Shown piece by piece: positions 2,177-2,522 of a stretch of DNA of 64,000 nt (its first letter is position 1; each line of letters opens with the position of its first letter). The notes below the pieces were generated by a model. The model ran no database searches, was not told the DNA's origin, and saw nothing but the letters and a program-made list of their open reading frames with translations. The position numbers were made by a program, and so were the translations under genes. This DNA is from a virus (lineage: Duplodnaviria > Caudoviricetes), in the IMG/VR virus record IMGVR_UViG_3300027804_000038, positions 1 to 64,000 of that record. The stretch is one strand, 5' to 3'.

Positions 2177-2195
2177 ATAAGATAAATATATTAGT

Positions 2196-2276
2196 TAGGT
2201 ATTCTCAACATAATGCAACCCACTGCTCCATAACGCGCTGGGTACCTGATACCTCCATTTGCAAGGTATTCTCAAC
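2196..2276 (+). CRISPR. Mini-array: truncated repeat, one 31-nt spacer, one full 36-nt repeat embedded in ORF 2205-2522
   Basis: Truncated repeat ends 2209 (2188-2209 identical to 971-992); spacer 2210-2240; repeat 2241-2276 GGTACCTGATACCTCCATTTGCAAGGTATTCTCAAC. Confidence 0.7.
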
Positions 2277-2522
2277 CCATCTACCGATAACTTGTTCAGA
2301 ATCAGACTTTTGCATAGAAAAGAAGGTAGAAATTTCATCAACTAATTTATAATAAATTCCACACCAACCACCCTTTTTATGAAATCTAATTTGAGCGTAT
2401 TTATCTCCCTCAGAATTAAGAAAGTATATACTATTTTTCTTTTCAATCTGAATAAAGTCCTGATTATCCAAGTACTTAAAAATTAGGTTATCAATCTGTG
2501 ATTCGGTGATTAGGTATTTCAT
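2205..2522 (-). CDS. Small paralog-family protein; C-terminus encoded by repeat plus spacer
   Basis: MKYLITESQ...WVENTLQMEVSGT-QRVMEQWVAL-C*. Confidence 0.9.
   Translation of the reverse strand: MKYLITESQIDNLIFKYLDNQDFIQIEKKNSIYFLNSEGDKYAQIRFHKKGGWCGIYYKLVDEISTFFSMQKSDSEQVIGRWVENTLQMEVSGTQRVMEQWVALC

Follow-up and report, generated by a model that had tools for sequence, protein, structure and literature searches.

The locus

The DNA considered here, hereafter the window, comprises 64,000 nucleotides (nt) and represents the first 64 kb of a 293,850-bp IMG/VR virus record (IMGVR_UViG_3300027804_000038; Duplodnaviria, Caudoviricetes), which is rated 100% complete by CheckV and has a GC content of about 30%. 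On its minus strand, between positions 1186 and 3547, small paralogous genes encoding about 100-111 amino acids each (aa; MKYLITESQID...IGRWVENTLQM...) are clustered in tandem, and it is the 3' end of one of these, paralog C, that forms the subject of this analysis. At this end the last structured codons of the gene coincide with a 36-nt repeat, which is followed in the direction of the gene by a single 31-nt spacer and a truncated copy of the repeat, the layout of a minimal CRISPR array. A sequence-only reading of these bases had delimited the repeat (2241-2276), the spacer (31 nt, 52% GC), the truncated repeat and the open reading frame (ORF; 2205-2522) correctly in every coordinate, and had taken the unit for the minimum that yields one CRISPR RNA (crRNA) with a 3' handle. 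Judged by its bases, the reverse complement of the last 12 structured codons of the gene (VENTLQMEVSGT) appears to be a degenerate direct repeat (DR) of the Cas13b type. The features of the locus are collected in Table 1.

Table 1. Features of the paralog cluster, with positions in the window
Feature	Position	Strand	Description
Full repeat, 36 nt	2241..2276		+ strand GGTACCTGATACCTCCATTTGCAAGGTATTCTCAAC; minus strand reads as codons VENTLQMEVSGT; + strand resembles type VI-B direct repeat
Single spacer, 31 nt	2210..2240		16/31 = 52% GC; minus-strand translation QRVMEQWVAL; shifts the frame
Truncated, degenerate terminal repeat (stump), 12 nt	2198..2209		GGTATTCTCAAC; minus strand GTTGAGAATACC
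Paralog C	2205..2522	-	105 aa; uncharacterised large phage protein family (MKYLITESQID...IGRWVENTLQM..); from ORF list and family alignment
Intergenic motif TAACTAATATATTTATCTTAT	2177..2197	-	Conserved; just upstream of ATG (2176) of gene 1880-2176
Array 1	981..1257		Behind paralog A; stump 981-992; full repeats 1023-1058, 1089-1124, 1155-1190, 1222-1257
Paralog A	1186..1503	-	105 aa; last structured codons are repeat 1222-1257; tail LHRFVADCLEC from 31-nt first spacer
Paralog F, 3' end	3218..3301	-	Apparent decayed unit: repeat-like 3266-3301 (62%), 29-nt ex-spacer, degenerate stump

The repeat-spacer-stump unit

The C-terminus of paralog C reads ...VENTLQMEVSGT-QRVMEQWVALC*, where the repeat supplies residues 83-94, and the spacer together with the first bases of the truncated repeat supplies residues 95-105; it is within this truncated repeat that the TGA stop codon of the gene (2205-2207) is situated. 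In an AlphaFold (AF2) model of the protein, with a predicted local distance difference test score (pLDDT) of 90 and a predicted template modelling score (pTM) of 0.83, the repeat-encoded residues make up the end of a helix (72-87) and a terminal beta-strand (93-97). On this model the 36-nt repeat is predicted to be integral to the protein fold, and the spacer-encoded residues would be an appended tail.

The arrangement is not confined to one gene. Paralog A, which precedes a four-spacer array (array 1), likewise has a first spacer of 31 nt, and both genes end in Cys-stop inside the GTTGAG of the next repeat, as the sequence-only reading had correctly described; they do so because the first spacer is 31 nt long. 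The identity of 2188-2209 with 971-992, noted in the same reading, extends over all 22 positions (24 of 25 for 2185-2209 against 968-992), and 971-992 contains the stump that closes array 1. The same stump closes arrays in related phages. Allowing up to two mismatches, the window contains 15 occurrences of GGTATTCTCAAC, where shuffled sequence contains 5.2 +/- 2.5; nine of the 15 lie within this gene cluster. The spacers of array 1 measure 30, 30, 30 and 31 nt, and the mismatches of its repeats relative to the in-gene copy rise with distance from the gene from 1 to 3 and then to 7; this outward divergence suggests that new units arise beside the gene.

Recurrence of the unit and turnover of its spacers

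A pattern scan combined with a family-guided scan of IMG/VR provided 56 related loci, and in these loci and the window together the hidden Markov model of the family detected 199 ORFs. Among 99 distinct family 3' ends, there are 33 behind which the first 12 bases of the end's own repeat return, in a full or a truncated copy, and the spacing is 29-31 nt in every case. The 43 distinct spacers of the window and the related phages are mutually unrelated and measure 29, 30 and 31 nt in 17, 15 and 11 cases respectively, with none outside this range; their mean GC content is 41.8%, compared with 30.2% for genomic 30-mers (p = 3e-12). The unit, consisting of repeat, unrelated 29-31-nt insert and stump, thus stands behind dozens of genes of the family, and its recurrence with other spacers far exceeds chance, which strongly supports the earlier proposal of a reproducible mechanism rather than an accident. 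Arrays are confined to the subfamily with WVENTLQM[KRE]V and none is found in others, for example those ending ...WVENTLDRRVKEIIIR. The WVEN.L residues are kept even in paralogs without any likeness to a DR. A scan of IMG/VR for further multi-unit arrays yielded only four contigs, all of them previously identified.

The family as a whole is large, comprising 1,651 clusters at E <= 1e-5 in a collection of 5.8 billion proteins, none of which is named and none of which has a Pfam domain. In the best 118 of the 1,651 clusters, on which the analysis of the tails was conducted, the sequence following the 12 repeat-encoded residues is hypervariable and has three stereotyped endings, namely ...LRIP(S/Y)(K/N) after a 29-nt spacer, ...VENT after a 30-nt spacer, and one residue plus stop after a 31-nt spacer. 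These endings are no more than the three reading frames of the next repeat.

The inserts differ between close relatives. The nearest relative of gene C (L018, 214-459) is 90% identical in the gene body and carries an unrelated spacer (31 against 30 nt). Beyond array 1, the flanking sequence agrees with that of L018 at 97% identity, yet the two arrays contain four spacers and one spacer respectively and share none. The repeats of one array have lineage-specific variants in common, which match those of the in-gene copy. In lake metagenomes the array-2 region, that is, the unit of paralog C, is found unchanged in a run from another study and year, the element being the same in runs of 2019 and 2021, and other lake contigs carry the same stump joined to different inserts. 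Contigs from one lake run join position 957 directly to 2545, and some strains thus lack 958-2544 with both arrays, paralogs A-C and the gene 1880-2176, as does contig L003.

Certain relatives show the arrangement in other states. A distant member of the family on the + strand of the window (8109-8696) contains at least four in-frame copies of a 36-nt unit (VENILNHKVNEI-like), the gaps between them measuring 30, 27 and 30 nt. Similar in-frame arrays are present in related phages (gene-strand repeat GTGGAAGAGGTCTTAAATCATAAGGTATCCACAAC), in which 30-nt cassettes recur in an order that differs between phages. The tail of paralog F (QWVVFSKSE[IV]LKVH..), apparently an old 29-nt spacer with a decayed stump, is now a conserved protein segment common to loci L041, L046, L048 and L055.

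Relation to type VI-B CRISPR repeats

The repeats of type VI-B systems are 36 nt long, with a U-rich loop and complementary 5'-GUUG/CAAC-3' ends, their spacers are 30 nt long, and in the mature crRNA the spacer occupies the 5' side and the repeat the 3' side (Smargon et al., bioRxiv 10.1101/092577). A search with the degenerate 3' half of the phage repeat (+ strand) plus the canonical GTTG start of the next repeat returned 57 metagenome loci, at least 35 of which are genuine arrays with a period of 66 and 36-nt repeats. In two of these loci hmmscan identified Cas13b (NF038190), namely in L085 (706 bits), where it lies with Csx27 between two arrays, and in L118 (565 bits). The best genuine repeats (L085 and L089) have the same length and register as the phage repeats and agree with the array 1 repeat at 28 of 36 positions and with that of paralog C at 24 of 36; in the 3' half the agreement of genuine and phage repeat reaches 18 of 19 bases, 18 of the matched bases being dictated by the search pattern itself.

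A sign of DR origin that is independent of this search comes from codon usage. The codons that produce the likeness (GAG, ACC, CTA/CTC, AAG and GTC) are minor ones in this AT-rich genome, yet they occupy 124 of 167 sites in array-bearing genes as against 52 of 174 sites for the same residues in array-less paralogs (p = 1.4e-16). Altogether, the kinship of the phage repeat to VI-B repeats is well supported by these sequence comparisons, and the + orientation of the repeat is favoured but not certain.

The phage unit shares with type VI-B arrays the 36-nt repeat, spacers of about 30 nt, the CAAC-3' end on the + strand, a degenerate terminal repeat and a U-rich loop (+ strand CCAUUUGCA in the paralog C repeat, CAUUUGU in array 1). 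It differs from them in having no cas13b or csx27/28, in a repeat which codes for protein on the opposite strand, and in its single spacer. With GGUG at its 5' end and U at position 32, the phage repeat cannot form the terminal GUUG/CAAC stem that defines the type. The phage first spacers are spread evenly over 29-31 nt whereas about 90% of the spacers in genuine arrays are 30 nt long, and the apparent leader side is inverted in the phage units. In the genuine VI-B1 locus L085 the cas13b and csx27 genes are flanked by two oppositely oriented arrays (790-1120 and 5353-5786); one of these has its identical, presumably newest, repeats at the CAAC-3' end, a polarity opposite to that of the other.

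Translation of the insert

Several observations indicate that the first spacer is read as protein. Stop codons in frame are present in seven of 35 first spacers in the translated frame and in 30 of 70 cases in the two other sense frames (p = 0.03); similarly, shortened tails are found in 11 homologues of the best 118, where about 40% would be expected. Lengths too depend on position. First spacers of 29, 30 and 31 nt number 15, 9 and 11, later spacers, which mostly lie behind the stop codon, 2, 6 and 0, and those of genuine arrays 11, 162 and 6, such that 30-nt spacers make up about 90% of genuine host spacers and 26% of phage first spacers. This pattern fits an inserting machine which prefers 30 nt, with subsequent selection on the frame and openness of the translated spacer.

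RNA fold, expression and targets

The proposal that the unit yields one crRNA with a 3' handle found no support in any of the tests run, be it of fold, covariation, promoter, protospacer or Cas13b. The predicted folding energy of the paralog C repeat is -5.1 kcal/mol (z = -0.46) and that of the array 1 repeat -3.3 kcal/mol (z = +0.9), while genuine VI-B repeats, which form an inner stem as well as a terminal one of 5 bp, reach -9.4 to -12.2 kcal/mol (z = -2.6 to -4.1). For the phage repeats the energies are not better than those of shuffles, and the terminal stem is missing, the + strand of the paralog C repeat reading GGUA...CAAC. Over 38 distinct repeat variants the canonical structure is paired in 59.6% of cells, and pairs 2:35, 5:32 and 11:26 are broken in 36-37 of the 38 with no covariation. 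The positions that break the stem are set by the protein, through Glu84 (GAG) and Thr94 (ACC). The hairpin AUACCU/AGGUAU of the sequence-only reading does appear when the minimum-energy structure is predicted, but this structure is at the level of shuffles and is not accompanied by covariation. Stem covariation across homologues, whose absence that reading had itself named as evidence against a guide function, was looked for and none was found.

The inner 5-bp hairpin deserves separate mention. On the + strand 91.6% of its cells are paired, a figure that shuffles equal and that includes one double change only; on the minus strand the value is 82.1%, and with synonymous codons redrawn it is 77.9 +/- 1.8%. 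We read the better pairing of the + strand as a by-product of retained DR nucleotides; it is the single result that leans towards a + strand RNA. That paralog C has its own repeat variant is true to the extent that its repeat differs from the in-gene repeat of array 1 at seven of 36 positions (eight from the array 1 consensus), but this is how far paralogs ordinarily diverge: the repeats differ by 19% and the gene bodies by 15-16%, and three of the seven changes are synonymous. Synonymous-site conservation was considered as proof of selection at the nucleotide level and rejected, the values for repeat and gene body being similar (see below).

Signs of expression are equally sparse. No sigma-70 or Bacteroidota-type promoter motif was found on the + strand upstream of array 2, and no metatranscriptome contig covers it (2198-2276). 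Only two metatranscriptome contigs touch the cluster, one per run (1160-1256 and 1384-1605), both of them short, unstranded and perhaps DNA carry-over. The former, of 97 nt and low depth, differs from the window at 1191 only; it runs in array 1 from repeat 3 through spacer 4 to repeat 4, and could be an mRNA 3' end, a precursor crRNA (pre-crRNA) or DNA carry-over.

The search for effector and targets gave a similar picture. The Cas13b model (NF038190), which does recognise the enzyme in L085 and L118, matched nothing in the complete genome of 293,850 bp and nothing in five related records. Neither the phage nor four relatives encode Cas1 (PF01867), for which seven of 14 control genomes were positive. 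No protospacer was found in the phage's own genome at up to seven mismatches or in two related complete genomes (G001 and G002), and the 56 related loci gave self hits only. In the collections, where the scans detect exact cores only, the 18-mers of the two halves of the paralog C spacer gave zero hits and three chance hits (19-22 of 31 overall) in IMG/VR; blastn of the spacers against INPHARED gave E >= 0.3, and the cores of three other spacers gave nothing or their own contig. The search for the protospacer suggested in the sequence-only reading therefore ended with no target for the paralog C spacer in the genomes and collections scanned. A 20-nt core of a spacer from the related contig L002/L022 is matched exactly in a phage contig of 58% GC (L168, 906-925), but only four of 11 flanking bases agree; this match is probably due to chance and was left uncounted. 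Conversely, the 31-mer is not conserved coding sequence, the other outcome that would have spoken against a spacer, but is unique to its lineage. A guide-RNA role is possible but unsupported.

Origin of the unit

We favour the explanation that the unit is a Cas-less repeat-spacer element derived from type VI-B, lying antisense in the 3' end of a phage gene, that it was made by the adaptation integrase of the host, and that it is now translated as a tail; to this composite reading we give about an even chance. During infection, the Cas1-Cas2 complex of a Bacteroidota host, which in hosts of this kind serves VI-B arrays in trans, would mistake the point where gene meets repeat for a leader-repeat junction, insert a prespacer of about 30 nt at the junction of CCATCTACC and GTTGAG, and duplicate the 36-nt repeat in place. 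The oldest repeat copy would survive only as the 12-nt stump, which has become joined to the next gene's promoter-like motif. The outcome can be seen in the sequence: translation continues from the repeat into the spacer and adds the 11-residue tail QRVMEQWVALC, the 31-nt length of the insert setting the frame in which the stump supplies the stop codon. On this reading the unit is primarily a heritable insertion scar and tail cassette; evidence that it is a guide-RNA gene was not found, and a role for a + strand RNA is possible.

The mechanism with the best support is that the 36-nt end of the gene was duplicated in place on either side of a captured piece of about 30 nt, and we infer, rather than observe, the involvement of Cas1-Cas2. 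To our knowledge, the only machine which duplicates a site around a capture of about 30 nt is the Cas1-Cas2 integrase. Type II adaptation enzymes read the leader-repeat junction and a ruler element near the second site. In Flavobacterium columnare, VI-B arrays gain spacers in trans via II-C Cas1-Cas2 (PMC8092290), and off-target integration by Cas1-Cas2 is described as making new arrays in E. coli (Nivala et al. 2018, as outlined in bioRxiv 10.1101/148544). The signature of such neo-CRISPR events is what the phage units display, the duplicated stretch being exactly 36 nt and the inserts 29-31 nt with a foreign GC content.

A number of observations weigh against this explanation. At the 17 positions of the repeat free of the search pattern the best match to a genuine repeat is 10, which is not significant (reached by 291 of 5,000 shuffles), and the reverse orientation still scores 25 of 36, because VI-B repeats are quasi-palindromic, which leaves the orientation not fully settled. 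The exact 19-mer TTTGTAGGGTATTCTCAAC yields four chance hits inside genes (FtsX-like permease, integrase) and no host array in 185,579 species genomes; a host array with the exact repeat was found in none of the species genomes scanned. The argument for a foreign origin of the spacers is solely their composition, no protospacer having been found for any of them. The lengths of first spacers differ from those of genuine arrays (p = 6e-15), a difference explained solely by selection on the reading frame, and the synonymous codon identity of the repeat (0.73) shows no higher conservation than that of the gene body (0.70). Furthermore, duplication by an integrase predicts a full terminal repeat rather than a 12-nt stump, which would need later deletion or ancestral inheritance; the flank is shared by paralogs, and the stump was probably inherited. 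Finally, with the gene acting as leader the array is inverted with respect to canonical VI-B arrays, one + strand array of L085 appearing to have the same polarity.

Of the alternatives, the one that dispenses with CRISPR altogether holds that the repeat is a 12-residue C-terminal motif followed by variable 10-residue cassettes which ordinary recombination has exchanged or duplicated, the geometry being convergent and the out-of-frame units decayed. The predicted place of the repeat in the fold and the retention of WVEN.L in paralogs without DR likeness agree with it, as do the depletion of stops in the translated frame, the failure to find cas genes or protospacers, and the arrays of 8109-8696 and of related phages, which are fully in frame with inserts of 30 or 27 nt and share cassettes in different orders. 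Yet among the 43 spacers 28 have a length of 29 or 31 nt and none falls outside 29-31, no ordinary recombination is known to make novel inserts of fixed length, and the inserts are foreign in composition, unrelated to three complete phage genomes and different between genes that are 90% identical. A match at 18 of 19 bases to a VI-B half repeat in the same register and unit length is, moreover, very unlikely by chance, and the DR-like codons are rare in this genome. We consider this alternative unlikely, and for these out-of-frame units the data speak for a translated CRISPR-like array rather than a protein cassette repeat. Capture of ready-made host VI-B units through GTTGA.AATACC microhomology, with spacers that are the host's own and no integration in the phage, would account for the stump: if an ancestral '...WVENT-stop' gene received 66-67 nt made up of repeat positions 13-36, then a spacer, then repeat positions 1-12, the result would be exactly one complete repeat followed by a spacer and a stump of 12 nt. 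That the segment came from elsewhere is also suggested by its rare DR-like codons. But the repeats within an array carry phage-lineage variants matching the in-gene copy, a host array with this repeat is absent from the species genomes scanned, about 90% of host spacers are 30 nt long compared with 26% of phage first spacers, and no phage spacer is to be found among 227 spacers taken from related genuine arrays; we hold such a capture to be very unlikely. A search of the same 227 spacers against three phage genomes gave a longest match of 19 contiguous bases.

The other two alternatives place the function of the unit in an RNA. In one the unit is a working phage mini-CRISPR array, transcribed on the + strand and processed by host Cas13b into one crRNA directed against competitors or host transcripts. 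The order of 31-nt spacer and 36-nt repeat on the + strand is that of a mature VI-B crRNA, the repeat is DR-like with a U-rich loop in that orientation, the inner hairpin pairs best on that strand and above the redrawn codons, and array 1 lies directly downstream of the + strand gene 253-969, so that read-through could transcribe it; virus-borne mini-arrays involved in conflict between viruses exist, moreover, according to the account of Medvedeva et al. (2019) in PMC10651486. The terminal GUUG/CAAC stem is nevertheless gone in 36 of 38 variants, the folding energies are far from those of genuine repeats, and array 2 has neither an upstream + strand promoter motif nor an RNA contig, while no protospacer in related phages or IMG/VR and no Cas13b in the genome or five related records was found. 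It is also established that activated Cas13b degrades RNA collaterally, which would hurt the phage too, and a working array thus seems to us distinctly unlikely. In the other, transcribed repeats sequester Cas13b as a decoy in the manner of an RNA anti-CRISPR (Racr), the spacer being irrelevant. Solitary repeat units of phages that mimic host repeats are known to inhibit CRISPR-Cas (PMC10651486), and the phage has several DR-like units, no cas genes, and rare DR-like codons kept in array-bearing genes. The decoy meets the same structural and expression objections as the guide, however, and others of its own: Racrs are non-coding, promoter-proximal and host-like in fold, while here the repeat is coding and the fold lost; the ever-changing 29-31-nt inserts are left unexplained; and the Racr survey contains no type VI examples (PMC10651486). 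We therefore regard it as highly improbable.

Comparison with known elements and significance

Besides type VI-B arrays, the nearest known parallels are of three kinds. The mini-arrays of Sulfolobales viruses (Medvedeva et al. 2019, cited in PMC10651486) resemble the phage unit in being Cas-less, with one or two spacers and host-related repeats; they are intergenic, with repeats nearly identical to those of the host and spacers matching related viruses, whereas the phage repeat has diverged and codes for protein, and none of the spacers has a match in a related phage. The nearest genuine repeat agrees at 28 of 36 positions and the exact 19-mer is absent from the arrays of 185,579 species genomes. 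Racrs (Camara-Wilpert et al. 2023, PMC10651486) are likewise phage mimics of CRISPR repeats without cas genes. They are small non-coding RNAs behind a promoter that keep the fold of the host repeat, while the unit described here has a spacer, overlaps a coding sequence and shows no sign of expression in the contigs examined; the survey of Racrs found solitary repeat units for every CRISPR type except type VI (PMC10651486). In neo-CRISPR, as presented in bioRxiv 10.1101/148544 (Nivala et al. 2018), a repeat-like site is similarly duplicated around a spacer-sized insert at a distance from any cas locus, in that case on the E. coli chromosome and by induced Cas1-Cas2; the target here would be a phage gene, and the product is inherited by the phage, translated and recurrent in a large gene family. 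A full-text literature search returned no account of a CRISPR-type array which doubles as the translated 3' end of a gene.

Beyond the single locus, one might envisage that the adaptation machinery of Bacteroidota repeatedly writes DNA into the 3' ends of phage genes that keep a Cas13b-repeat mimic, the immune integrase then acting as a generator of hypervariable tails and the other strand perhaps providing guides or decoys. We advance this wider claim tentatively and consider it rather doubtful. If true, no type VI-related repeat element would have been reported from viruses before and no CRISPR-type array that is translated, and spacer integration would also leave heritable, expressed insertions in the viruses that it is meant to record; the tails of a jumbo-phage family of more than 1,650 clusters would then be set in sequence and length class by captured fragments of 29-31 nt. 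The matter bears on the choice of targets by the integrase, on the birth of new CRISPR arrays and the diversification of phage proteins, as well as on whether type VI systems are also engaged by phage-borne repeat mimics. It likewise constitutes an annotation trap, since CRISPR finders report an array and gene callers a protein for the same bases.

Flanking and minor features

The stump of paralog C overlaps a promoter-like TAACTAATAT(A)TTTA motif of the next gene. In the region of the motif TAACTAATATATTTATCTTAT the minus strand has a Bacteroidota-like -7 box (TAnnTTTA) at 2190, with the TTG of the stump about 15 nt upstream, and a weak sigma-70-like match at 2208-2179. Motifs of the TAACTAATATATTTATCTTAT type recur at other paralog junctions, for example at 2523-2544 and 3201-3231, and by this resemblance the intergenic motif is a putative promoter of the gene that follows.

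Pfam, PHROGs and PADLOC contain no family for these proteins, and a search by fold gave no significant match in the PDB (Foldseek E >= 0.18; VIA Z <= 4.5, with weak winged-helix-like rows only), those in BFVD being uncharacterised phage paralogs only. Rfam reports no family in positions 1-6000 of the window at E <= 1. Elsewhere in the window ARAGORN predicts a transfer-messenger RNA (tmRNA)-like gene with the tag GNVINKLQTIGLIRTEEVSVA (49741-50133, minus strand) and transfer RNAs (tRNAs) for Met(CAT) and Arg(TCT) (45509-45664, + strand). Bases 1-240 of the record recur with about three mismatches at 293611-293850, within a glycosyltransferase gene; this 240-base end repeat represents either terminal redundancy or the assembly overlap of a circularly permuted genome.

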